From: an uncultured Melioribacter sp.
GTDB lineage: Bacteria > Bacteroidota > Ignavibacteria > Kapaibacteriales > Kapaibacteriaceae
Direction: 5' to 3'
Assembly (NCBI GenBank): GCA_964465685.1
Contig: CAYXKK010000004.1
Span: 24,697 to 88,696, forward strand
DNA length: 64,000 nucleotides
Position 1 is the stretch's first letter; every line of letters starts with the position of its first letter. Shown here piece by piece: positions 39,001 to 59,602 of the stretch. Position numbers and translations under genes: made by a program. The notes under the pieces were generated by a model. It searched no databases. It was not told the DNA's origin and worked only from the letters and a program-made list of their open reading frames with translations.

Positions 39001-39393
39001 TCAGGCGATTCCGTAATACGATTTGAGTGTTTGGTAGGCCGACGTGATTTCGCGCGCCCTCGCAGTAGCTCGTGCATGTGTTTCCGCATCGGCTCGGGCA
39101 AAACGATCAGGGTGCCAAGCGGCGATTGACGTACGAAATGCCTTCTTGATGTGCTCGTGGGTGGATCCGACAGGAACATTGAGCGCGGTATGTGCTGCGA
39201 TGATGTGCTGCGGAACGTTCGGCGGAGGGGTCGGGGGAGGCGTCCGAGGGGGGGTGTCGTGAGACAACTCCTCGATGATACGCCGCAGCTCGTCATCGTC
39301 TCCAGCAAGGATGTCGTCGATCGACGGACTTCCTGAGCGCTGCGACGAAAGCTCGCTTGCGACGATGTTCTTGATGCGACTGAAAATGCCCAT
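39001..39393 (-). CDS. Small protein with a C-terminal J domain (DnaJ-like, ~130 aa)
   Basis: C-terminal HEHIKKAFRTSIAAWHPDRF...ITSAYQTLK contains the HPD motif. Start chosen at MGIFSRIKNIV, 9 nt after the upstream stop. Confidence 0.6.
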   Translation of the reverse strand: MGIFSRIKNIVASELSSQRSGSPSIDDILAGDDDELRRIIEELSHDTPPRTPPPTPPPNVPQHIIAAHTALNVPVGSTHEHIKKAFRTSIAAWHPDRFARADAETHARATARAREITSAYQTLKSYYGIA

Positions 39394-39401
39394 GTGGCAA
39401 A

Positions 39402-41810
39402 TTACAACCGCGCGCCGATGGAGAAGTAGAAGAGGACCGGTCCCCAGGCAACTGCATCGGGGTTGCTGATGAAGAAGAATGAGCGTCCAACCGAAAACTG
39501 TGCTGGTCCAACTGGTGTGTCGAGTCCGACACGCAATCCGAGTCCGTGATTCATATCCGCAATGCGGATCTTTTCGGGACGTTCCCAGACCGCACCAAGG
39601 TCGTAGCGAAGCGCAACGTAGGTATCGAAGAAAATCCGGAAGGGCATCTTCCATCGCGCCTCAAGATTCGCTACTGCAATTTGGCGTCCACGCTCCTGAT
39701 CTTCACGCCACCCGAAGAAGATGTCTTCACCCCCAAGACTAAACAATTCCGGGGATGGCAGTGTAAGGTCGGCGGCTCCGATAAGGCCGCTCGGCGTGAT
39801 GACAACATCACCCACCTGTACAGATGTACTCGCCGATGCTGTGAACTTGGTGAACGACAGACTGTTCGAGAGGCTAAGAATGGACGACTCGAATGTCAGG
39901 TCGATCTGACGTCCTCGCGTTGGATAGGTGAGCGCATCACGGTCATCCCATCGTGCAACACCGCGAAGTGTAGCAAGGGGCTGGTATTCCGGCGCAGTAC
40001 TTGAGTTCAGATCACGATAGCGCTGCTGCTCGTATCGGAATTCGCCCAAGATCACGCCGTTCCGCTCGAGCTGACGTCCAGCTGAGGCACGCAGACCATA
40101 GCGTTCTTCGGCAAACTCACCTACACGCAGCGGAATCGGAGAATTCGCCGGACGCCCAACAGTATTCCGATAGATCCACACATTGCGGAAGCTTGCATAG
40201 CCCCGTATAGAAGCGGTCCAGAGAGTGCCGCGGAAGCGTGGGAGTTCGAGCGATGCAGCTGCAACTCCAATGCGCTCGCTAATCGCGCCGCGCGCAACAA
40301 CACGAACGCCAGTGGTGAAAAGATTTTCGTGCACGAGATCAAGGCTGCCCTGGGTGTAGCGCTCGTTGTCGACGCGAGCACCGATGCGCAGAAGTTGATT
40401 GCCGCCGTCACGACCTGCGATATCGATGCGTGTTCCGATGGTATCTCGTGCAACAAGAATCGAAGCGTCGGCGATAATGTCTGACGCATACATGTTCTCG
40501 AGTGTGCGTTGCAGCGCCTCCGACGTGTGTGTGTCGCCTGCGCGTACGGCTACTTCACGCAACACGTCGGTTTTACGCAAGCGGTCACTATTCGATACCG
40601 TGATGCGATTGACCCGACCATCGTCAATGGTCATGCGCAAGGTCTTCGTTGTAACGTCAAAGTCAATGTCACGCACAGATGCAAACGTGTATCCTTCATC
40701 ATGAAGTGCCGACGTGATGCGTGGCAGGTGGTATCGTGCCGTTGCTGGTGTCCAGTCACGACCGACAAGATCATCAAGGCATTCCCGCACGCGCGGAAGC
40801 GTGTCGAGTCCGTTTGCATTGCGCTGGTGAATGGCAACGATCATGCGTGGAAGGTCGTCCTGCTGCTCTATGGCGTGAGTAATACGGACAACGCCCTTCA
40901 ATGATGGTAGCATGCGTTCGGCAGCCTGTTCGCCGAGCGCAATTAGTTGATCGATGTTCGCAAAGTCGAATGTACCTACACCATTTAGTGTCGGTGTTAC
41001 AACAACCGATGCTTTGGCAAGCAGCACAGAATCGCGCTGTTTCATCGACGCCGTCAATGCCTGGTCGGCGATCGCCCATGGTGTGGTGAGCTCTGCTGTC
41101 GGCACAAAGTCGCTCGTTGTATTCACGACAATGATCGCAGTAGGTGCAAATACTTGCGCTGCTTCGATCGGGATGTTGGCTACGAGTCCACCATCAACAA
41201 GAATCGTATCTCCGTTCCACGCTACTGGCGCGTAGCGCAGCGGAAACGTTGCACTCGCACGCATTGCCGTTGCAAGATTGCCTTCACTCAGCGAAACTGG
41301 GCGTCCGGTAGCAAGGTTGGTCGCTACAGCGCGGTAACGCACGTGTAGATCATCAAACGACGTTGCGGTGTTGTACGGACTTTCCCAGAGGATGCGTTGT
41401 AGTGCGGATGTGAAACGCGCGCTCCCACCGAGAGCTGTGGGCGGGATGAATGAAAAGTTTCGGAATCGCAGCGTGAGCAGACTCCGATCATTCTCCTGCT
41501 TCTGTCCGTAAAAAAGAAACTCGCGTCGTGTGTCGGCACCAATTGATGTTACATCGTTCCAGTCAATGGACCGCATGATGCTCGCAATCGAATCAGGCGA
41601 ATAGCCCGCAGCGTACAATCCACCAACAATCGCACCGAACGACGAACCAACGACGACATCGGGGACGATGCCGTTGCGCTCTAACACGCGCAATACCCCG
41701 ATCTGTGCAAGACCCCGCGCACCACCACCTGTGAGCACAAGTGCTATCCGCTGCTGCGCTGCCAGCGGCAGTGCACAGAGGAGGGCGGCGATAGTTAGCA
41801 GAATGCGCAC
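39402..41810 (-). CDS. Patatin-like phospholipase fused to a C-terminal Omp85/bacterial-surface-antigen beta-barrel (PlpD-like, type Vd secretion architecture)
   Basis: Signal peptide. Patatin GGGARG oxyanion region and GSSFG lipase serine, a DGG-type catalytic Asp region, then a ~350-aa Omp85-type barrel ending in an aromatic-rich C-terminus. Confidence 0.8.
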   Translation of the reverse strand: MRILLTIAALLCALPLAAQQRIALVLTGGGARGLAQIGVLRVLERNGIVPDVVVGSSFGAIVGGLYAAGYSPDSIASIMRSIDWNDVTSIGADTRREFLFYGQKQENDRSLLTLRFRNFSFIPPTALGGSARFTSALQRILWESPYNTATSFDDLHVRYRAVATNLATGRPVSLSEGNLATAMRASATFPLRYAPVAWNGDTILVDGGLVANIPIEAAQVFAPTAIIVVNTTSDFVPTAELTTPWAIADQALTASMKQRDSVLLAKASVVVTPTLNGVGTFDFANIDQLIALGEQAAERMLPSLKGVVRITHAIEQQDDLPRMIVAIHQRNANGLDTLPRVRECLDDLVGRDWTPATARYHLPRITSALHDEGYTFASVRDIDFDVTTKTLRMTIDDGRVNRITVSNSDRLRKTDVLREVAVRAGDTHTSEALQRTLENMYASDIIADASILVARDTIGTRIDIAGRDGGNQLLRIGARVDNERYTQGSLDLVHENLFTTGVRVVARGAISERIGVAAASLELPRFRGTLWTASIRGYASFRNVWIYRNTVGRPANSPIPLRVGEFAEERYGLRASAGRQLERNGVILGEFRYEQQRYRDLNSSTAPEYQPLATLRGVARWDDRDALTYPTRGRQIDLTFESSILSLSNSLSFTKFTASASTSVQVGDVVITPSGLIGAADLTLPSPELFSLGGEDIFFGWREDQERGRQIAVANLEARWKMPFRIFFDTYVALRYDLGAVWERPEKIRIADMNHGLGLRVGLDTPVGPAQFSVGRSFFFISNPDAVAWGPVLFYFSIGARL

Positions 41811-50424: not shown

Positions 50425-51810
50425 TTATCGCGCGACGAGAAAAACGGAGTTCGCCACCTGCGCATCTCCGGAACAGCGCGCGACGTAGGTGCCGGGCGGC
50501 AGCGAAGAAACATCGATAGGCACCGAATCCAGGGTTGTGCCTACCGTGATGACGGAGCGACCAAGAATATCTACGATCTCAATGGTCACCGCTATGGCAG
50601 AGAGTCCGTGGCGGATGGTCACGTTACTCGCAGCTGGCTGGGGATGGATTTCGAGATCGTGTGGTAGTTGGCAGTCTGCTACAGAAGTGATTGAGCACGG
50701 ATCGCTCATCCGTATCGGTGAGAGCACGGCATCGCGTTTGGAAATCCCAAGCATCAAATTGTCCAGATTTTGGCCCCACGTCCACCACTGCCCCGTAGAG
50801 TCGACGGCAAAACACGACATTCGTGAGGAGAAAATTTCACGTATCGGCGGCAGACTCGCTACTCGCTGCGGCGTGAACGATGCGAGGAACGATGGTAACC
50901 CAAGCTGACCATATGAGTTGCTGCCCCAGGTCCACACTGAACCATCGGCCCGCAGTGCAATGCTATGATACCTTCCGCCTTTGGCATCAACCACATCTGT
51001 AAGATCCAATCGATATGGTGTTGAACGGTTCGCTCGAGTTCCGTCACCGACCTGACCGCCTTCATTCGTTCCCCAGGTGTACAACGTCCCTGATGAATCG
51101 ATGGCGTAGCAGGGTCCAAGGTCGCCGTGTGATTCACTCGAACGCACCATGCGTATGCGCGATAATCCCTCGATTTGTCCGATTGGAACACGAAGCGAAT
51201 CAGGATTCCTCGCCGATGCACCACCACTGTTGTTACCCCATGACCAGACCGTCCCATCCACCAGCAGTGCGAGAGCACTGCCACCACTGCCGGAAATGGA
51301 GTGAACCTTCTTGGGGAGAAGTAGCTTCTTGGGACGGTACACTGGCGTCGTCTGGTCGCTGCCAAAGAGTATCGATAGGAAGGAAGAATTGTAACAGGTC
51401 GCATACACTTCACCGTCGTAGGTCAGATACATTGCAAACTGCGACGGCTCTCCAGCAACCATCTTCACCGGTTTATCGAAAGGTATCCGACGGAATACGA
51501 AACTGTTGCGACTTATATCTTCGAGTGTATCGCCGACGAGTCGCTCGGCAAGCGGTGAACCATAGACGGCGCCGCTTTGTGTCAGAGCGAAAATTGCACT
51601 ACTGAAGTACAGCGAAGTGATGCGCTCGTTAGACGGAACACTGTCGATGTTGAGATACGATGGACCCCATGGATGAATCTTCGTGCTGTCGCATGATACC
51701 CATCCCTCGAAGCGGCCAATCGCTGGTCTGATCTGTGAATGGGCTACCTGGCAGAGCATCAACATGGCCGCCACGAACAGGCCAAACGAGTAGGTCGGGT
51801 TCGTTCTCAT
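50425..51810 (-). CDS. Secreted RCC1-repeat beta-propeller protein with a T9SS C-terminal sorting domain
   Basis: Signal peptide. RCC1 signatures (WGSNSYGQLG, WGTNEGGQVGDG, WSWGNNSGG). C-terminal ...LPPGTYVARCSGDAQVANSVFLVAR Por-tail. Confidence 0.75.
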   Translation of the reverse strand: MRTNPTYSFGLFVAAMLMLCQVAHSQIRPAIGRFEGWVSCDSTKIHPWGPSYLNIDSVPSNERITSLYFSSAIFALTQSGAVYGSPLAERLVGDTLEDISRNSFVFRRIPFDKPVKMVAGEPSQFAMYLTYDGEVYATCYNSSFLSILFGSDQTTPVYRPKKLLLPKKVHSISGSGGSALALLVDGTVWSWGNNSGGASARNPDSLRVPIGQIEGLSRIRMVRSSESHGDLGPCYAIDSSGTLYTWGTNEGGQVGDGTRANRSTPYRLDLTDVVDAKGGRYHSIALRADGSVWTWGSNSYGQLGLPSFLASFTPQRVASLPPIREIFSSRMSCFAVDSTGQWWTWGQNLDNLMLGISKRDAVLSPIRMSDPCSITSVADCQLPHDLEIHPQPAASNVTIRHGLSAIAVTIEIVDILGRSVITVGTTLDSVPIDVSSLPPGTYVARCSGDAQVANSVFLVAR

Positions 51811-54251
51811 TCGTTTGTCTCCATTCTCGAGCAGTCAGGTACCGTCACCTTCTTCGTGCAGATGACCGTCCCGTTAGGATCCCGCAGGTTGATGGTAAAT
51901 GTCTCGCCTTTGCGATACGTTCGACATAGAGGCGCAGACTCAAAAATGCCCGATCCAAGGTTCATAGACTTTACCGGGATGCCGCCCGGACCGATTACTT
52001 CGGCAGCAACAGTTCTATTCCTCGACGTGCAATTACGCAGTTGAATTCGTACAAACCTACAGCAATCGTCGGGCAACGATACTCCTCGTCCAATCGGCGG
52101 TTTCTCGAGAGTTACGATGACGTCATCACAGGTAACATTGCCTCGACATGTTTGTGCAAGTTCGGCGTTTACGTCTACCGATACAGAACATGCAACTCCA
52201 CCGACTGTAATGTTGGCAGAGGCAACGAGCGACTTTGGATTAAAGGCGAAACACGTTGGGATGCATAGTCGGCCGATCACGTGCTTATTGTTTCCGTTAG
52301 CTGAGCCAGCACGTGGCACGAGCGTTACTGACGAGTTGCCTTTTACCAATAGCCAATCGCTACTTACGGTTGACAACGTGATGTTCTCATCTGTGAGAAT
52401 CCTTATCCCGGTGAGATTGAACGGGCAACTGGTGGTTGCGGCTACGCTCACGTCGAAACAACACGTACCAAGGGCGTCTTCAAACAGCAACTCCAGTTTC
52501 GGAGACCGCGTACTGCAATCGCAATCACATCTAAGCTTGACATTCTTCCAGCACAGAATGCTACCATCAAGGCCTCGGAAGACAATTGTCGTAGAGTCAG
52601 TCAGCGCTGAAACATTTGTTTTTTCGATGCAGAATGAATAGAGGAATCCGGAATGCTTGGGGTCGACTGGCATTTCGGGCTTGTAGGTCTCGGTGATTCT
52701 ATCCTTGTCGAGGAATGTCAGACTTGAGTAGATGTCTATTGAGCCAATGGTGCAGCCTGATTTGAGCTTCGATGCATCCACATACACGTTGAAGCAGCAC
52801 TTGTCCGACCTCTCAGTGTTCGGTTCAACACGCACGCTTTTCGCAAAATCATCGCAGTTGCACTTGTCTGTGCAGCCACGGTAGGAAATGCGCTTCTCGC
52901 AGAATGCCTTACCATCCTTTCCCTTTGCAATGACGACTAGCTCTCTGGATTCCTTCTGATCGAGAGCTGGCAGGCATATAGTGCCTAGGTCATACCACTG
53001 ATAATCGCCAACAACCGGCTGTTTGGTAGGATTGCTCGTGCTGGCATCTTTTGACTCCCATCTGAATGCCCGATCACCGATCTGCGATCCCTCGAATGCG
53101 TGAATATCCATGCCATAGATTGTGCAGGCAAGCGATCGCGCGTCGATAACGTCGCCCCCACCGTTAATGAGTCTCACTCGAAAGCAGCATTTCGCGGGAT
53201 CCTGCGATAAAGCTGGGATGAGCTCGACTTGGAAGCTGCCGTTGCACACGCATTCAACTACTTCCGTAAGGCGTACATCGTCGATGTAATAGTAGGCAAA
53301 CTGTCGTGAGGTGGGATTGCTGAAGTAGTTCTGGCAAACAGGCGGAAGAGGCTGATTAACGTCCACACTGGGCCGTTCCTCGAAGTTTCCGATCGTCAGA
53401 TATCTCTCTCCACCGTTAGCGATGAAATCATGCTGCACGAGGGTCCATCCGTTTTTTCGGTCGATCTTTCCTGCACTAGCTAGCTTCAGTCCGGGGTCCC
53501 CTATTGTGTAGGGAATCCCGACACGCGCATTCGGTCCATCGTTGTCATCAATGTCGTAACAGGCGTCCCGGTATGAGTTTTGCGGGATTGTAAGGTATGG
53601 ATTCGGGGAAACTCTCGCTTCCAGACCGATAGCGTGGGTGCTCACCTCCGACAGCGATGCGTAATAGCTAAGAGTGTACTTCCCGTCCTTCTTTAGCGGA
53701 ACTAGCAGTTCCACTTCGAGGTATTCACGCCAGAGCTCATTTGCAGGATCAGCTACCCGATCAAACGGTACGATGTTGGATCCGGCATCAATTCCATTCA
53801 ACCGGTAATACAATCCAGCGTACCGCGTGTTTGCAGCATCCGCTAGCGTACGTGTTGGTTCATAACCGAACCAGTTCTCAGGGATGCCTACATACGACCC
53901 ACCTCCTACGCCAGGAATGCACGGCTCCTGTTCGGTTGTAAACAGATCTGCGCTGGAACATGAAATCGGATCGTAAAATGTTCCGGCGGGGATGTATGGT
54001 ACCCGATCTTGATCATACGGGATGATAAACGGAGGGGCTGTGCTGTTTTCCAGCATGTACCGATGAAACTGCCTCCACCATCGGCTCGCAAAGAGATATC
54101 TGGTGCCCCAGACAGGCCACGTTGGATTTCTCTGATGATCAATCGTGATTTGTTCGAAGGACCCATTGGGAACGTAATCTCGCACACCCGTTATTGGTTG
54201 AGCCAAGGACACATGGCAATCTGAGAGCAAAACTCCCAGAATCAGCAGCAC
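51807..54251 (-). CDS. Large secreted Cys-rich protein (814 aa) with about four internal repeats marked by CCF-x-V motifs; unknown function
   Basis: Hydrophobic N-terminus. 40+ cysteines. Recurring K-CCFRVRL / KCCFNVYV / GTCCFDVSV / DCCRFVRI elements about 100 aa apart. GTG start. ~50% GC. A 4-nt overlap with the downstream RCC1 gene. Confidence 0.55.
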   Translation of the reverse strand: MLLILGVLLSDCHVSLAQPITGVRDYVPNGSFEQITIDHQRNPTWPVWGTRYLFASRWWRQFHRYMLENSTAPPFIIPYDQDRVPYIPAGTFYDPISCSSADLFTTEQEPCIPGVGGGSYVGIPENWFGYEPTRTLADAANTRYAGLYYRLNGIDAGSNIVPFDRVADPANELWREYLEVELLVPLKKDGKYTLSYYASLSEVSTHAIGLEARVSPNPYLTIPQNSYRDACYDIDDNDGPNARVGIPYTIGDPGLKLASAGKIDRKNGWTLVQHDFIANGGERYLTIGNFEERPSVDVNQPLPPVCQNYFSNPTSRQFAYYYIDDVRLTEVVECVCNGSFQVELIPALSQDPAKCCFRVRLINGGGDVIDARSLACTIYGMDIHAFEGSQIGDRAFRWESKDASTSNPTKQPVVGDYQWYDLGTICLPALDQKESRELVVIAKGKDGKAFCEKRISYRGCTDKCNCDDFAKSVRVEPNTERSDKCCFNVYVDASKLKSGCTIGSIDIYSSLTFLDKDRITETYKPEMPVDPKHSGFLYSFCIEKTNVSALTDSTTIVFRGLDGSILCWKNVKLRCDCDCSTRSPKLELLFEDALGTCCFDVSVAATTSCPFNLTGIRILTDENITLSTVSSDWLLVKGNSSVTLVPRAGSANGNNKHVIGRLCIPTCFAFNPKSLVASANITVGGVACSVSVDVNAELAQTCRGNVTCDDVIVTLEKPPIGRGVSLPDDCCRFVRIQLRNCTSRNRTVAAEVIGPGGIPVKSMNLGSGIFESAPLCRTYRKGETFTINLRDPNGTVICTKKVTVPDCSRMETNE

Positions 54252-54283
54252 GACACTTAGCGATCTAAGCTGCGGGAAGTTGC

Positions 54284-54295
54284 GGGGGGGGGGGG
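54284..54295. repeat. Homopolymeric G12 tract (C12 on the coding strand), 33 nt upstream of the start of the Cys-rich protein gene
   Basis: Read directly: tgc-gggggggggggg-catat. Confidence 0.95.
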
Positions 54296-54468
54296 CATAT
54301 ACGACTCCGGAATTCTATGAACTACTTTTACTACATCTTGTTCGTAGAACATACATCCACGCAATCAAAGCTGCAAGGACAATCTGCGGTATGACAGTAG
54401 TTGTCATACACGCGATTCGTGAAGTGTCTGTACTGTGTGATTATGCGATTACAGAAAATGATGCACAT

Positions 54469-54594
54469 GGGTCGCTTCACTCCAAGCATCGACGACGTCA
54501 ACGCTGTTGCGCTCAGCGTGCTTCGCCACCGCCTCGTCACGAACTTCAGTGCCGAAGCCGAAGGCGTGAGCGTCGATACAATTATCCGCGAGCT
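54469..54594 (+). pseudogene. Right copy of the 126-bp direct repeat: an orphan fragment duplicating the last ~42 codons of moxR
   Basis: Encodes GRFTPSIDDVNAVALSVLRHRLVTNFSAEAEGVSVDTIIREL with no upstream moxR body. One mismatch to the copy in the intact gene. Confidence 0.85.
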
Positions 54595-54651
54595 CACAGG
54601 GCAGAAGTGATGCGCCCCTGCTGTGGCGCCAAATAGCCGTACCTTTGTGGC

Positions 54652-55962
54652 ATGGGTCTCGTAGCAATCGTTGGCCGACCGAACGTCGGCAAGTCCACGC
54701 TGTTTAATCGCATCATCGAAGAACGCCATGCCATTGTGGAAGGTGTTCCGGGTGTTACGCGTGATCGTCTGTACGCCAAGGGCGAGTGGGCAGGCATTGT
54801 ATTCCAGCTCGTCGATACGGGTGGTATCGTGCCTGATAGCGATGATGTGTTCGAAAGCGCGATTCGAGAGCAGGCGATGCTTGCGATCGATGAAGCGGAT
54901 GTGATCCTCTTCGTTGTGGATGGCCGTGACGGTCTGACGCCGATTGATAGCGAGATTGGTGGCATGCTTCGCAGCTCCAAGAAGCCGGTTGTGTTGGTTG
55001 TCAACAAGTGCGACAACGCATCGGGTGATCTCAATGCGTCGGAATTCTATGCACTGGGTCTTGGCGATCCGTTTGCGATCTCTGCATTGAATGGTCGCAG
55101 CACGGGCGACTTCCTGGATCTTGTTGTGTCGCACCTGCGTGACGACGAACAGATGGAAGACTCGCGACTGAAGATTGCGATCGTTGGTCGTCCGAACGTG
55201 GGTAAGAGCTCGCTGACAAATGCATTGCTTGGCAAGGACCGCATGGTGGTAACGCCGATTGCGGGCACGACACGCGATGCGATCGACAGCGTGCTGACGT
55301 ATTACGGAGAAGAGATCGTCCTTATCGATACAGCAGGTCTACGTCGCCGGAGTCAAATCAAGGAGAGCATTGAGCTCTTCAGCACGATGCGCACATCGCG
55401 CGCGATTGATCGATGCGATGTAGCGGTGGTGGTGGTCGATGCAGTGCAAGGCCTCGAAGCGCAAGACAAGCGCGTGATCTCCGAAGTTGTTGCAGCCCGC
55501 AAGGGTATCATTATCGCGCTCAATAAGTGGGATCTGATCGAGAAAGACACGAAGACGGCCGACGCGTTCATCCAGAAGATCTATGATGAGCTGCCGACAC
55601 TCGACTACGTGCCGATCCTCACGATTTCCGCGATCACGAAGCAGCGCATCACGAAGCTCATCGAAATGTCGAAGAAGATTCAAGAACGTCGTTGTGTGCG
55701 CATCCCAACGCACGAGCTCAATGAGGAGCTGATTGCGATGCTCGAGCGTACGCCCCCTCCAAGTGTGAAGGCGCGCGACTTGCGCATCAACTACGTAACG
55801 CAGGTAAAGACTGAACCACCATTGTTTGCGTTCTTCTTGAACTTCCCTGAGCTGCTCCCGGAAGCCTACAAGCGCTTCATTGAACGTCAGCTGCGTAAGC
55901 TGCACGACTTCGAGGGCGTGCCGATCAGCTTTGTATTCCGGAAGAAGAACAACCGCGATTAA
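54652..55962 (+). CDS. der: Ribosome-biogenesis GTPase Der (EngA), two tandem GTPase domains plus KH-like domain
   Basis: GRPNVGKST (G1) occurs twice, with DTGG/DTAG (G3) and NKCD/NKWD (G4). Confidence 0.95.
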   Translation: MGLVAIVGRPNVGKSTLFNRIIEERHAIVEGVPGVTRDRLYAKGEWAGIVFQLVDTGGIVPDSDDVFESAIREQAMLAIDEADVILFVVDGRDGLTPIDSEIGGMLRSSKKPVVLVVNKCDNASGDLNASEFYALGLGDPFAISALNGRSTGDFLDLVVSHLRDDEQMEDSRLKIAIVGRPNVGKSSLTNALLGKDRMVVTPIAGTTRDAIDSVLTYYGEEIVLIDTAGLRRRSQIKESIELFSTMRTSRAIDRCDVAVVVVDAVQGLEAQDKRVISEVVAARKGIIIALNKWDLIEKDTKTADAFIQKIYDELPTLDYVPILTISAITKQRITKLIEMSKKIQERRCVRIPTHELNEELIAMLERTPPPSVKARDLRINYVTQVKTEPPLFAFFLNFPELLPEAYKRFIERQLRKLHDFEGVPISFVFRKKNNRD

Positions 55963-55976
55963 TCCGTCGTGGGCTG

Positions 55977-56726
55977 TTATGCGAACAGCTCAATGCCAAG
56001 CACAACACATCCGATCGCCAAGACAACCCATCCGAAGGCTGCACGTAGCGCGGTGTTGTCGATGCGTCGAGATAAGAGCGTGCCTGCGATGATGCCGGCT
56101 GTGGTGAGCGCAGTAAAGGTCAGCACATAGGGCCAGTCGTACTGCATCCCATCGGCCATGTCGACCATGACGCCGGTGAAGGAGTTCACGCAGATCAGCA
56201 CCAGCGACGACGCAACGGCGCGCTTCATGTCGAGTCCGGCCCACAGCGCAAGTGCGGGTGTGATCAGAAACCCTCCGCCCACTCCAAGCAGTCCACCAAT
56301 TGCACCGATCACAATGCCGAAGGCACTGAGTCGCAGTGGATGTACTTCGTGAGTGTCTGACGACGTCGTCTTGCGCCCGCGCATCATCGCAAGTGCCGCA
56401 ACCAGCAGAATGATGCCGAAGAAGATCATCTGCACGCGTTGCGGAACATACTGATCCAGATATCCGCGTACAGCAATGAGCGAGAGGATTGTCGACGGAC
56501 CGAACCACACGATCGTACGCCATGCAACCAGACGCTGGCGCCATTGCATGCCGACAGCGATTGCCGATGATACAGCGACGATGAACAATGCGTAGCCATC
56601 GGCGAGCTCAGGTGCAACGCCGCCAATGTAGACGAAGGCTGGCACGGCAACAATTGCGCCGCCTGCGCCCAAGAGTCCGAGCGATACACCGATTGCTGCC
56701 GCAATAACAAGCATCAGTGGCGTCAC
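55977..56726 (-). CDS. TauE/SafE family sulfite/anion exporter-like membrane protein
   Basis: About 8 TM helices, with duplicated Gly-rich GxxxG segments typical of TauE (AGGAIVAVP..., LLGVGGGFLITPAL). Confidence 0.8.
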   Translation of the reverse strand: MTPLMLVIAAAIGVSLGLLGAGGAIVAVPAFVYIGGVAPELADGYALFIVAVSSAIAVGMQWRQRLVAWRTIVWFGPSTILSLIAVRGYLDQYVPQRVQMIFFGIILLVAALAMMRGRKTTSSDTHEVHPLRLSAFGIVIGAIGGLLGVGGGFLITPALALWAGLDMKRAVASSLVLICVNSFTGVMVDMADGMQYDWPYVLTFTALTTAGIIAGTLLSRRIDNTALRAAFGWVVLAIGCVVLGIELFA

Positions 56727-57040
56727 GCTGTCACCGCCGTTGCGCGATCGAGTTCGTGCGCGATTGCTGCATAGGGCTGCACACCGGCCTGACGCCAGAT
56801 GGGTTGTCCGTGTTGGAAGATCATGAGCGTTGGGATGCTCTGTATCCCGAACCGTGCCGCGAGTTGCGGCTTGTTGTCGACGTTGACCTTGATGACGAGT
56901 GCACGCCCCTTGAAATCACGAGCGATCTGTTCGATCGTCGGTGCAACAGCATGACACGGTCCGCACCACTCCGCCCAGAAGTCAACAAGGATGGGCTGCG
57001 ACGTTGAAGCAAGCAGCTCATCGAAGGTGCCCGTTACCAT
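56723..57040 (-). CDS. trxA: Thioredoxin
   Basis: WCGPC active site in FWAEWCGPCHAVAP. Start at MVTGTFDELL. Confidence 0.9.
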   Translation of the reverse strand: MVTGTFDELLASTSQPILVDFWAEWCGPCHAVAPTIEQIARDFKGRALVIKVNVDNKPQLAARFGIQSIPTLMIFQHGQPIWRQAGVQPYAAIAHELDRATAVTA

Positions 57041-57327
57041 TGCAGCATGCCTCCCTCGAGGTTGACGGGATTGGTAAAGCCTTGCATGCCGAGGAACAAG
57101 CATGCTTGACCGCTGCGGTTGCCTGAGCGACAGTACACGATGAGTTCGCGATCGCGATACTGTTCGATCTCGTCGAGTCGCTCAGGAAGCTCACCGAGTG
57201 GAATCAGGATTGCATGTGGAATGTGCACTTCGGCGTGCTCTTCCGGTTGGCGCACATCGAGAAGTACGAGGTCGTCGCCTGCCGCGATACGTTGCTTGAG
57301 ATCGGTCGATGAGATTGTTGCGAACAT
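57034..57327 (-). CDS. Single-domain rhodanese sulfurtransferase
   Basis: 97 aa, with active-site Cys loop VYCRSGNRS. Confidence 0.85.
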   Translation of the reverse strand: MFATISSTDLKQRIAAGDDLVLLDVRQPEEHAEVHIPHAILIPLGELPERLDEIEQYRDRELIVYCRSGNRSGQACLFLGMQGFTNPVNLEGGMLQW

Positions 57328-58739
57328 TATGCTGATTTCTCCGTGGAAACAGGTGCGCCAGATGCTTGCCAGCCGGCATAGCCCTGAGGGAAATTGACTA
57401 CGTTGGTAAAGCCTTCGCGTTGAAGAATGCTAATCGCGATGCTTGAGCGATCGCCACCTTGACAAGAGATCACGACCGGTGTGTCGCGTGGGATTTCATT
57501 CGTGTGACCCTGCAGGTAGCCCGCATGGAGATGCATTGCTCCAGGAATATGTCCTGCGTCGTACTCACTTGTTGCACGTACATCAACAACACGCAATGAG
57601 CCATCGGCATGGTGTGCTATGAGATCATCGAGATGGATCTGTGGAACTTCCGCGAGTTCATTGCCCGCTTCTTGCCAGTCGGTGACGTTCGGGTAGTACC
57701 CAGCAACACCATCCAGACCGATACGAATGAGCTTGCGCATCACATCGTCGAGATTATCTTCATCGGCAATGAGTGCGAATGGCTCGTCGTAGTTCAACAC
57801 CCAGCCCGCCCATGTTGAGAAGGCCTTGTTGTTCTGGATGTTGATCGTTCCTGGGATGTGTCCGCCCGCAAACGACACTTTCGAACGTGTGTCGATAACG
57901 TGTCGATTCGATGTGAGTACATCGCGGAGTTCGCCAAGTGTGAGGCGCTTCGGCGATGGCACGCTGTCGAGCAGTGGACGTTCCACCTTGTTGAGCTTCT
58001 TCATCATCGCGAAGTAGCGAGGGGGCTCGGGTTGTCCAGAGAGGAGCTCGGCAACGAATGCATCCTCTGATGTGTGGCGCAGTGCCCAGTTGACAAGCTT
58101 CTCGTAGCCGACGGTTGATGACGGAATTGCGCCCAGCGCTTTGCCGCACGCCGAACCAGCGCCGTGTGCTGGGTGAACCTGAATGTGATCAGGCAGGGCC
58201 TTGAAGCGTGCGAGTGATTTCCACATTTGGCGCGCGCCAACTTCCATGGTGCCAACGAGACCTGCTGCCTTTTCAAGCAAGTCCGGACGACCGACATCGC
58301 CAACAAAGACGAAGTCGCCGGTGAAGATCATGATTGGAATATCTGCAGCAGCCGGCGTATCGGTGACAAGGAATGAGATGTGCTCGGGAGTGTGACCCGG
58401 CGTGTGCATCGCTTCGATCTTGATGTTGCCCACCATGAAGGTGTCGCCATCCTTGAGTCCGACGTGATCGAATTCGTATTGCCATTCATCGCCCCCTTCG
58501 TCTGATAAAAACATCATGGCACCCGTCACATCGGCGAGCTCGCGCGTACCGCTCAGGAAGTCGGCATGGATGTGCGTTTCTGCAAGGTGTGTGATGCGCA
58601 GACGTTCTTGACGTGCGATCTCGATGTAGGTGTCGATGTCGCGCTTTGCATCGATGACTACGCATTCGCCGGTCTTCTGACAGCCGACCATGTAGGATGC
58701 GTGGGCAAGGCCTGGTTCGTAGATCTGTTTGAAAAACAT
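57327..58739 (-). CDS. Persulfide dioxygenase (ETHE1-like MBL fold) fused to two rhodanese domains (CstB-like)
   Basis: MBL metal motif THIHADF / HTPGH..., then two rhodanese modules, the last carrying the catalytic CQGGDRS. Confidence 0.85.
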   Translation of the reverse strand: MFFKQIYEPGLAHASYMVGCQKTGECVVIDAKRDIDTYIEIARQERLRITHLAETHIHADFLSGTRELADVTGAMMFLSDEGGDEWQYEFDHVGLKDGDTFMVGNIKIEAMHTPGHTPEHISFLVTDTPAAADIPIMIFTGDFVFVGDVGRPDLLEKAAGLVGTMEVGARQMWKSLARFKALPDHIQVHPAHGAGSACGKALGAIPSSTVGYEKLVNWALRHTSEDAFVAELLSGQPEPPRYFAMMKKLNKVERPLLDSVPSPKRLTLGELRDVLTSNRHVIDTRSKVSFAGGHIPGTINIQNNKAFSTWAGWVLNYDEPFALIADEDNLDDVMRKLIRIGLDGVAGYYPNVTDWQEAGNELAEVPQIHLDDLIAHHADGSLRVVDVRATSEYDAGHIPGAMHLHAGYLQGHTNEIPRDTPVVISCQGGDRSSIAISILQREGFTNVVNFPQGYAGWQASGAPVSTEKSA

Positions 58740-58825
58740 ATGACGTCCTTTCAGTTCAATGTCGTAACGAAGTATGCGAACCTACGGCATCGCATACGAG
58801 CGTGTTGGTGACTTTTTCACAATGC

Positions 58826-58841
58826 TGTCACGTGCGTGACA
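58826..58841. promoter_or_regulatory. Perfect palindrome TGTCA-CGTGCG-TGACA (a Crp/Fnr-family-type TGTCA-N6-TGACA box), ~95 nt upstream of the persulfide dioxygenase start. It overlaps the crp stop codon.
   Basis: Read directly from the sequence. Half-site spacing is identical to the Crp/Fnr family consensus architecture. Confidence 0.4.
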
Positions 58842-59499
58842 GAAGTCCCTTGCGATCTTTGATTGTGATCGATCCCCGGTGGATTTCTACCCAGCCCCTT
58901 GCCGCAAAGTCTCGCAGAATACGCGTCACGACCTCGCGTGCGGTGCCCGCTTCTTCAGCGAGCTTCTCGTGCGTAGCATTCACAGTTGACGTGTGGTGTC
59001 GCGCTGCATGATCGATGAGGATGCCGGCAAGACGTTCGTCCATGCGACGGAAGACGATTTCCTCGATAAGAATCATCACGTCCGTCAGACGCGTTGCAAA
59101 CATGCTGAAGACGTAGTCGCGTGCTTCGTTCGACGTGTTCATGAGCTCGCGAAAATCATCCGTCGAGATCGTTAGCACGGTAGCGTCTTCTTCGACTACG
59201 GCACTGGCTTGGTGAATGGGATTCGACAGTGCGCACGACATCGAGAGGATGCATGTATCGCCACGGCCGATGCGGTAGAGTGTGATCGACTTTCCGGTGT
59301 CGTGCTCTTTGAACACACGAATCGATCCCGAAACGACGAAGCCGATGCGACCGCACCCTTCGTTCTCACGAAACACATACGTACCAACGGGCAGGTCCAT
59401 GCGATGGACTCGCTCAGGGGGCAGAAAGGTGAAGACACCAGGTATGGTAAGGTCGTTCTGTTCCATTGTCGAAACTACATGAAATTTCACGGTTGGCAT
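58828..59499 (-). CDS. Crp/Fnr family transcriptional regulator
   Basis: N-terminal cNMP-binding-like beta-roll. C-terminal HTH ...EKLAEEAGTAREVVTRILRDF.... No N-terminal Cys cluster of FNR proper. Confidence 0.8.
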   Translation of the reverse strand: MPTVKFHVVSTMEQNDLTIPGVFTFLPPERVHRMDLPVGTYVFRENEGCGRIGFVVSGSIRVFKEHDTGKSITLYRIGRGDTCILSMSCALSNPIHQASAVVEEDATVLTISTDDFRELMNTSNEARDYVFSMFATRLTDVMILIEEIVFRRMDERLAGILIDHAARHHTSTVNATHEKLAEEAGTAREVVTRILRDFAARGWVEIHRGSITIKDRKGLLSRT

Positions 59500-59602
59500 A
59501 CTCGACCTTCCTCTTTGCGAATGCCTGATTTCGTGTCTCTGTGTGATAGGTGATGTTGTGCGCAACGTGATTGCAGCAGTACCACATAGAGGGAGGGCGG
59601 TG

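Follow-up and report, generated by a model that had tools for sequence, protein, structure and literature searches.

A cysteine-rich jelly-roll protein paired with an RCC1 propeller in Kapabacteria-type Bacteroidota, with a candidate phase-variable poly-C tract at its gene start

Introduction

We examined a stretch of 64,000 nucleotides (hereafter the window) from an uncultured Melioribacter sp. (assembly GCA_964465685.1, contig CAYXKK010000004.1). On its reverse strand, the open reading frame (ORF) 51807..54251 encodes a Cys-rich protein of 814 residues with a Sec-type N-terminus. We found that this gene and a gene for an RCC1-type β-propeller form a pair that is conserved throughout the family. 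The propeller carries a C-terminal sorting domain (CTD) for type IX secretion (T9SS). The Cys-rich protein has no CTD, and is made up of a predicted jelly-roll head and four mutually homologous Cys-rich domains. At the start of its gene we found a poly-C tract whose length differs among otherwise nearly identical loci. These features raised the possibility that the two genes encode a phase-variable, two-protein surface adhesin/lectin module. The ORF had been noticed in a previous reading made from the sequence alone (hereafter the sequence-only reading), and the apparent loss of the CTD within a conserved pair and the candidate homopolymer phase variation go beyond what that reading had reported.

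Results

Four homologous Cys-rich repeats

Translation of the ORF indicated a real gene with a GTG start, as the sequence-only reading had described, and the motifs quoted there (CVCNG, KCCFRVRL, KCCFNVYV, GTCCFDVSV, DCCRFVRI and CDCDC) were all present. The Cys residues, given as more than 40, actually number 37. The signal peptide contains one of them and residues 19-330 contain four. The other 32 fall in residues 331-814, a region with a Cys content of 6.6% compared with a median of 1.1% among the long ORFs of the window. A family alignment of 14 members (30-58% identity, with one at 96%) revealed that 34 of the 36 Cys residues in the mature protein are invariant. Full-length homologs are few, and those that are named come from metagenome-assembled genomes of Candidatus Kapabacteria, a class of Bacteroidota in NCBI. 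The statement that the protein has no family assignment held, as Pfam gave no match and NCBIfam only a chance match of 16.1 bits, far below its cut-off of 513 bits.

The CC motifs are found at residues 355, 485, 597 and 730, so that their spacing is 130, 112 and 133 residues rather than the proposed value of roughly 100. The 14-homolog alignment was cut into four units, R1 to R4 (Table 1), and the units were compared profile to profile. Significant similarity was observed for R1/R3 (P=2.5e-12), R2/R4 (5.8e-10), R1/R2 (9.8e-9), R2/R3 (4.8e-6) and R1/R4 (2.5e-5), and R3/R4 was the sole pair without significance (P=0.17). The N-terminal domain, used as a control, gave P values of 0.29-0.42 against the repeats. 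By transitivity of the pairwise values, the four units are mutually homologous, and the internal repetition that the sequence-only reading had set as a check is thus clearly detectable. A hidden Markov model of 117 positions built from all units identified four copies in every full-length family member. The framework of each repeat is C-x-C ... CC ... C ... C ... C ... C. As these Cys residues are invariant and even in number (eight per unit), each unit probably contains four disulfides. The earlier proposal of four disulfide-stabilised tandem domains therefore stands as to four homologous Cys-rich domains following a region of about 310 residues, with the disulfides themselves predicted from the Cys pattern.

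In an AlphaFold2 (AF2) model of residues 331-809, the region consisted entirely of β-sandwiches, with a predicted local distance difference test score (pLDDT) that was mostly 75-86 and ranged over about 60-88 among blocks of 10 residues. When the full-length protein was compared with PDB using Foldseek, only generic arrays of the MG/FN3/Ig/cadherin type, such as C3, the leptin receptor and FN3, were found. The repeat profile gave no hits against PDB sequences at E≤10. A search of a 5.8-billion-protein set with the repeat alignment profile (A3) was empty and did not recover even the family itself, and is hence uninformative. With no match in Pfam, NCBIfam or PDB sequences, we regard the eight-Cys β-sandwich repeat (about 110-130 residues) as an undescribed domain type. 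A protein of 1449 residues (P0152) consists over nearly its whole length of at least 12 tandem, compact Cys repeats of about 100 residues, followed by a Por_Secre_tail domain (42.6 bits). This architecture indicates that the Cys repeat is a free-standing module of T9SS cargo and is not peculiar to the family of the Cys-rich protein.

N-terminal region

By inspection, the N-terminus was seen to combine a hydrophobic core with the cleavage motif S-L-A↓Q. Hydrophobic N-termini are present across the family alignment, and in most members they end in A↓Q. Gln at position +1 after the signal peptide is known as the Q-rule of Bacteroidetes (PMC5837995, PMC10653852), with which this Sec-type N-terminus agrees.

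An AF2 model of residues 19-335 displayed a predicted template modelling score (pTM) of 0.78 and a core pLDDT of 85-97. A family-specific insertion of about 95 residues (residues ~33-127) was poorly modelled. The best Foldseek matches in PDB were the gingipain cleaved-adhesin domains K1/K3, the carbohydrate-binding modules (CBMs) CBM4, CBM16 and CBM22, and a hyaluronan-binding module, with E values of 1e-4 to 4e-3. The top match was 4itc (K1; E=1.4e-4, target TM score 0.40), and 3m1h (K3) and 3km5 (K2) were also found. The scores of the gingipain domains were not above those of the CBMs, as CBM4 (3p6b, 1gui), CBM16 and CBM22 were matched at a probability of ~1.0 and a target TM score of ~0.4. 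Pfam detected neither CBM_4_9 (PF02018) nor Cleaved_Adhesin in the window protein. Among its relatives, P0012 and P0037 displayed weak CBM_4_9 matches (18.6 and 19.6 bits, respectively, with a cut-off of 25.9). At the level of the fold, the structure models thus support the CBM-like jelly roll that the sequence-only reading had proposed for this region.

Relatives were searched with phmmer in 1.84 billion representative proteins. There were 634 hits below 1e-3, and the 13 hits below 1e-30 corresponded to the family itself. Of these 634 hits, nearly all of the 150 that were listed match only residues ~115-340. We examined 117 homologs of the N-terminal domain, and found Por_Secre_tail in 53, CHU_C (a type-B T9SS signal) in 25, OmpA in 20 and CBM_4_9 in 7 (best E value, 2.1e-5). 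With a type-A or type-B CTD in 78 of the 117 proteins, the superfamily is mostly T9SS cargo. The window protein shares the motifs VPNxSFE, YAG, REYxxVxL, GGExYxTIGNF and YYYIDDV with this superfamily.

Pairing with an RCC1 propeller gene

The gene that overlaps the 3' end of the Cys-rich gene encodes a secreted protein with matches to RCC1 (1.1e-29), WD40_RLD (2.2e-41) and Por_Secre_tail (PF18962; 31.5 bits, cut-off 27) in Pfam. Its RCC1 repeats scored 103 bits with PF00415, in three stretches, and 74 bits with PF13540, and TIGR04183 gave 34.4 bits (cut-off 23). Together with the ATGA overlap, these matches confirm the earlier view that the Cys-rich gene is co-operonic with a T9SS-secreted RCC1 propeller.

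The sequence-only reading had missed that this pairing is a conserved feature of the family. Wherever the flank of an orthologous locus was readable (L001, L003, L004/5, L006-8, L009/10, L011, L012/13, L014-16 and L017-22), an RCC1 gene is situated directly downstream of the Cys-rich gene. A 4-nt overlap is present in most loci, including L001, L005, L010 and L011. As for the other junctions, the genes are adjacent in L003, overlap by 14 nt in L006-8 and are separated by a spacer in L014-16 as well as in the gene calls of L004 and L009. Taking into account that the outer neighbours differ between species while the RCC1 gene stays, the conserved unit is the gene pair.

The C-termini of five divergent partner proteins were then compared with the type-A CTD model. 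All five matched, four of them over essentially the whole model, and only that of L011 scored above the curated cut-off. As precomputed Pfam results indicated no tail on the RCC1 protein of L006, an exchange of the CTD between the two partners was considered for this locus. This was rejected, as the full ORF ends in a CTD that scored 20.4 bits in Pfam and 16.1 bits with TIGR04183 and covered the full length of the model.

Absence of a CTD in the Cys-rich protein and traces of its apparent loss

In contrast to its partner, the Cys-rich protein in the window ends seven residues past its last Cys. Pfam and NCBIfam detected no CTD, and R4 with the tail gave nothing in Pfam even at E≤10. When compared with the type-A CTD profile, R4 gave a P value of 0.056, which is not significant, and R1-R3 gave values of 0.18-0.43. 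The possibility that R4 is a cryptic CTD is not supported by this comparison, in which R1-R3 behaved similarly. These results agree with the sequence-only reading, which had seen no recognisable T9SS tail.

On the other hand, the distant relatives P0037 and P0100 consist of the N-terminal domain, Cys repeats and a Por_Secre_tail domain. In addition, the orthologs P0011, P0012 and P0026 possess a C-terminal tail of about 100 residues, and the C-terminal half of this tail matched the type-A CTD profile in hhalign with P=3.8e-6, compared with P≥0.12 for all controls (one reversed and 20 column-shuffled). We also found a remnant of the CTD-like tail in L014, the locus of P0013, which is a close relative of P0012. 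Here the remnant is located in the 296-nt spacer before the RCC1 gene (L014:3480-3775, and also in L015 and L016), and is broken by a TAG codon at a position that is not a stop in P0012, then by a frameshift and a second stop codon. Considering the CTD-bearing distant relatives, the CTD-like tails and the decay in L014, the Cys-rich family appears to have descended from CTD-bearing cargo and to have lost its own CTD, with that of the partner being kept.

A poly-C tract of variable length at the gene start

The listed GTG is probably not the native start codon. Upstream of it, the coding strand reads TATATG-C12-GCAAC, and the sequence suggests that this tract governs the frame of the real ATG. 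With C13 or C10, the proximal ATG would read MPPPPRNFPQLRSLSVVLLILG..., according to an in silico translation, and would produce MPPPPRNFPQLRSLSVVLLILGVLLSDCHVSLA↓Q, in which the signal peptide gains the charged n-region missing from the GTG-start version. K/R-rich peptides equivalent to RNFPQLRSLSV, which is encoded between the tract and the GTG, are conserved in the orthologs. No other G/C run in the window exceeds 7 nt; runs of 5, 6, 7 and 12 nt occur 36, 2, 1 and 1 times, respectively, the last being the tract. A C10 pattern matched only at the tract, and was contained in none of 100 shuffled sequences. The only other G/C run of at least 7 in the window is a G7 run at 39248-39254. As a comparable switch it was rejected, as it lies in the middle of an ORF (39001..39654, reverse strand) and not at a gene start.

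The position of the tract is kept in orthologs of 46-96% identity, with lengths of 7 to 17. The ortholog in L004/L005 has an in-frame C10 tract with the start MAMLPPPRNARLL, and the L019 protein starts in frame with MPPPSNLPWLK. In L002, a C10-TT-C7 tract is in frame with an upstream ATG, and the C17 tract of L011 is out of frame. The most distant orthologs have no poly-C tract at the start.

A single allele could be compared in six loci deriving from six assemblies and six samples, over 176 nt upstream and 3800 nt downstream of the tract. The loci differ by 0-6 substitutions and display no indel besides the tract itself, whose length is C7, C8, C8, C9, C8 and C7 in L001, L017, L018, L019, L020 and L021, respectively. 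In silico, C9 places the proximal ATG in frame with a gene call of 829 residues, and C7 places a distal ATG in frame with a gene call of 838 residues. With C8, there is no in-frame ATG, and a shorter protein of 749 residues without a signal peptide is called. The distal ATG is located ~30 nt upstream of the tract in this allele (AATGTTGTTC; L001/L021), and owing to its presence two of the three frames yield a product with a signal peptide. The window allele has AAAGTAGTTC at the corresponding site, without a second start. Judging from these sequences, the pattern of tract lengths matches slipped-strand phase variation.

As for the C12 allele, one contig (L012, from the Logan assembly of SRR14454018), which encodes the exact RCC1 protein of the window, starts inside the tract with C11 at the contig end (L012:1-11). 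A break at this position fits either length heterogeneity or poor coverage. A second tract length for the C12 allele was not found in L012, L013 and L023 (the window's own strain), which break at or inside the gene.

Features of the locus and neighbouring genes

The features of the locus are summarized in Table 1. In the window, the gene pair is flanked by a divergent der GTPase gene and a convergent gene for a MoxR-type ATPase (Pfam labels taken from syntenic genes). A scan of the locus for σ70 promoters and terminators was uninformative. The Cys-rich gene is compositionally slightly atypical, with a GC content of 0.509 in positions 52001-54000 compared with 0.535-0.58 elsewhere in the window. 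In L009/L010, a fragment of an integrase (rve) gene is present directly upstream of the Cys-rich ortholog.

Table 1. Features of the gene pair and its upstream region (positions in the window; residues numbered from the mechanically listed GTG start)
Feature	Position	Strand	Remarks
Gene for the secreted RCC1-type β-propeller partner (461 aa)	50425..51810	-	Type-A CTD at residues ~388-455, nt ~50446-50649
ATGA stop/start overlap of the Cys-rich and RCC1 genes	51807..51810	-	4 nt; predicted translational coupling
Repeat R4 and short C-terminal tail SRMETNE	51810..52154	-	Residues 700-814; Cys 702, 708, 730, 731, 741, 776, 798, 807; no T9SS CTD
Repeat R3, Cys-rich	52155..52535	-	Residues 573-699; Cys 577, 579, 597, 598, 609, 663, 667, 688
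Repeat R2, Cys-rich	52536..52868	-	Residues 462-572; Cys 464, 466, 485, 486, 500, 541, 567, and 575 at the boundary
Repeat R1, Cys-rich, predicted β-sandwich	52869..53261	-	Residues 331-461; Cys 334, 336, 355, 356, 376, 426, 451, 460
N-terminal domain, predicted β-jelly roll, CBM4/cleaved-adhesin-like	53262..54200	-	Residues 18-330; 4 invariant Cys
Predicted Sec signal peptide, hydrophobic core and cleavage region	54201..54251	-	MLLILGVLLSDCHVSLA↓Q
Stretch between the tract and the listed GTG	54252..54283	-	Open in the frame of the ORF; encodes the positively charged n-region RNFPQLRSLSV
Poly-C tract, candidate slipped-strand phase-variation switch	54284..54295	-	C12 on the coding strand, G12 on the + strand
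Proximal ATG, probable native start	54296..54298	-	Immediately before the tract; with C12, its frame is off by one base

Further upstream, an ORF of 267 residues with 5.4% Cys (54331-55134, reverse strand) lies antisense to the der/EngA GTPase gene (54652..55962, forward strand). It is almost certainly a spurious shadow ORF and not a second Cys-rich gene. Unrelated to the Cys-rich gene, a candidate run of sulfur/redox genes was recognized on the reverse strand at 55977-59565, judged by eye from the ORF translations alone. Its candidate products are a TauE/SafE-like membrane protein, a thioredoxin-like protein, a rhodanese, a protein with an MBL fold and a rhodanese domain, and a Crp/Fnr-type regulator.

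Discussion

A possible phase-variable surface module

We propose a conserved module of two translationally coupled genes in Kapabacteria-type Bacteroidota, of which the Cys-rich ORF is the first. The Cys-rich product would pass through Sec, and its mature form would comprise the jelly-roll head and a stalk of four Cys-pinned β-sandwich domains. The RCC1 propeller would pass through the T9SS and then be attached to the cell surface, by analogy with type-A cargo, which is exported and anchored by this system (PMC8545088, PMC11285876). The Cys-rich protein, without a CTD of its own, may bind a ligand as an adhesin- or lectin-like subunit and depend on its RCC1 partner to reach the surface or to be retained there, and the two products would then make up a complex at the surface. 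As folded proteins are moved by the T9SS (PMC9251779), a partner-dependent export of the Cys-rich protein is plausible. Slipped-strand mispairing would change the length of the poly-C tract, place the start codon in or out of frame and turn the module ON or OFF. Through the ATGA coupling, switching of the tract would probably affect the RCC1 partner as well. In the window copy, C12 leaves the proximal ATG out of frame, and the gene may hence be OFF or weakened. That the Cys-rich protein acts at the surface or as an adhesin is plausible in itself, and we consider the chances that the proposal holds as a whole to be about even.

Several points weigh against this proposal. A literature search found no documented case of co-export (piggyback) by the T9SS, and we infer both the interaction between the two proteins and the crossing of the outer membrane by the Cys-rich protein from sequence. 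The CTD-like tail of P0011/P0012 was undetected by Pfam and TIGR04183. The fusion of 20 of the 117 N-terminal domain homologs to an OmpA-like peptidoglycan-binding domain indicates that the head can also be used in the periplasm. Concerning the switch, some expression could still start at the in-frame GTG that follows the tract, and the tract lengths were taken from assemblies rather than reads, so that switching within a population lies outside such data.

A more specific form of the proposal would be a T9SS piggyback mechanism, in which the CTD-less Cys-rich adhesin is carried through the translocon or tethered to the surface by the CTD-bearing RCC1 partner, with the module under poly-C phase variation. 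In this case, phase variation would perhaps serve to evade phage or grazers that use the module as a receptor. We consider this mechanism doubtful.

Alternative explanations

The Cys-rich protein may instead have stayed in the periplasm after the loss of its CTD, not acting as a surface adhesin but binding envelope glycans through its head, for example, or holding or chaperoning the RCC1 cargo until its export by the T9SS. The absence of a CTD, the OmpA-like fusions in the superfamily, the lack of a piggyback precedent in the literature search and the compatibility of disulfide-rich domains with the periplasm are all consistent with such a role. On the other hand, the CTD-like tails retained in P0011, P0012 and P0026 and the bona fide CTDs in distant relatives of the same architecture argue that the ancestral location was extracellular. 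Moreover, phase variation is typical of surface-exposed rather than periplasmic proteins. A periplasmic role therefore seems rather unlikely to us.

Another possibility is that the Cys-rich protein is exported on its own, by R4 or the short tail acting as a cryptic, non-canonical T9SS signal or by another route, with the RCC1 protein being only a functional partner. R4 is indeed a β-sandwich of CTD size that ends in a G-x-F/Y...G-x-x-x-C-x-K hairpin motif, and members of the close clade share the tail E-T-N-E/Q past the last Cys. The non-significant match of R4 to the type-A CTD profile, which hardly sets it apart from R1-R3, and the failure of Pfam and NCBIfam to find a CTD make independent export improbable.

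We also considered that the poly-C tract is not a switch, and that its length differences reflect assembly or sequencing noise or neutral variation in a 5'-untranslated region, with the gene being expressed constitutively from a start downstream of the tract, such as the GTG at 54251. Long runs of G/C are indeed prone to errors, the tract is where one assembly breaks, and an in-frame GTG comes after it. Nevertheless, tracts of C7-C9 are short enough for reliable sequencing, yet they differ among six assemblies that are otherwise free of indels over ~4 kb. The position of the tract is kept among divergent orthologs, and past it comes a peptide that is conserved in frame and provides the charged n-region missing from the GTG-start signal peptide. 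A tract that is no switch thus seems improbable.

Finally, a secreted toxin or enzyme whose N-terminal domain is a jelly-roll glycoside hydrolase or lyase is very improbable; GH16 laminarinases and phage tailspike domains were found among the low-ranking structural matches, but the best matches are non-catalytic binding modules, the remainder of the protein is an Ig-like stalk, and no enzyme, toxin or defence family was matched in Pfam, NCBIfam or PADLOC. The toxin-like role suggested in the sequence-only reading is thus unsupported, the absence of a clear match to a known enzyme family is in line with that reading, and a role in a defence system was likewise rejected, PADLOC giving no hit.

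Comparison with known systems

Among characterized proteins, the Cys-rich protein resembles the cleaved-adhesin cargo of Porphyromonas gingivalis, represented by the gingipains Kgp/RgpA and HagA. Shared features are Gln at +1 after a Sec signal peptide, a head of jelly-roll fold (for which K1/K3 of Kgp were among the best structural matches, with scores no higher than those of the CBMs), Ig-like spacer domains, a Bacteroidota host and, in close relatives, a Por_Secre_tail domain. Unlike this cargo, the Cys-rich protein has no CTD and no Pfam match to Cleaved_Adhesin or a CBM, carries a stalk of undescribed eight-Cys domains and is paired with a CTD-bearing RCC1 protein. A homologous head with shared motifs is also found in an unnamed superfamily of small Bacteroidota proteins of about 320 residues, in which the N-terminal domain is followed by Por_Secre_tail, CHU_C or OmpA. 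The window protein differs from these in its ~95-residue insertion, its four Cys repeats and its lack of a C-terminal sorting or anchoring domain.

In Bacteroidota, invertible promoters are the more familiar basis of phase variation. Switching of exported proteins by slippage at homopolymers is established elsewhere, for example for NanH3 of Gardnerella, where the poly-C tract adjoins the region encoding the signal peptide (bioRxiv 10.1101/2020.09.16.300947). As in Gardnerella nanH3 and Neisseria opc (PMC3960869), a gene whose product is exported or surface-located carries a C tract (here of 7-17 nt) at its 5' end, and the length of this tract differs between sequences that are otherwise identical and determines which frame is read. 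The case described here differs from both in that the host is an uncultivated environmental Bacteroidota, the tract lies in the first codons and encodes poly-Pro in the n-region, the variation is known from assemblies, and one allele has two alternative ATGs, making two of the three frames productive.

In terms of partner-dependent export, type-B CTD proteins are encoded beside PorP-like anchors (PMC9143113), and the Tat pathway co-exports 'hitchhiker' subunits, as in PaoABC (PMC4273604). Our pair shares with these systems an adjacent co-expressed partner, an export signal on only one of the subunits and a secretion machinery that accepts folded proteins (PMC9251779). Unlike in the type-B CTD/PorP pairs, a soluble RCC1 propeller carrying a type-A CTD takes the place of the PorP β-barrel as partner, and co-export is what we infer for this pair.

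Implications

The results define an unannotated eight-Cys β-sandwich repeat in a small set of secreted proteins of Bacteroidota. They also provide a lesson for annotation, as gene callers give proteins of 749, 814, 829 or 838 residues depending only on the length of the tract. The tract-length differences are evidence, at the level of metagenomes, for phase variation by a homopolymer in an environmental lineage of Bacteroidota that has not been cultivated. The pairing of a CTD-less protein with a CTD-bearing partner, along with the trail of CTD loss, provides a testable candidate for T9SS co-export or partner-dependent anchoring, which has so far been undescribed.

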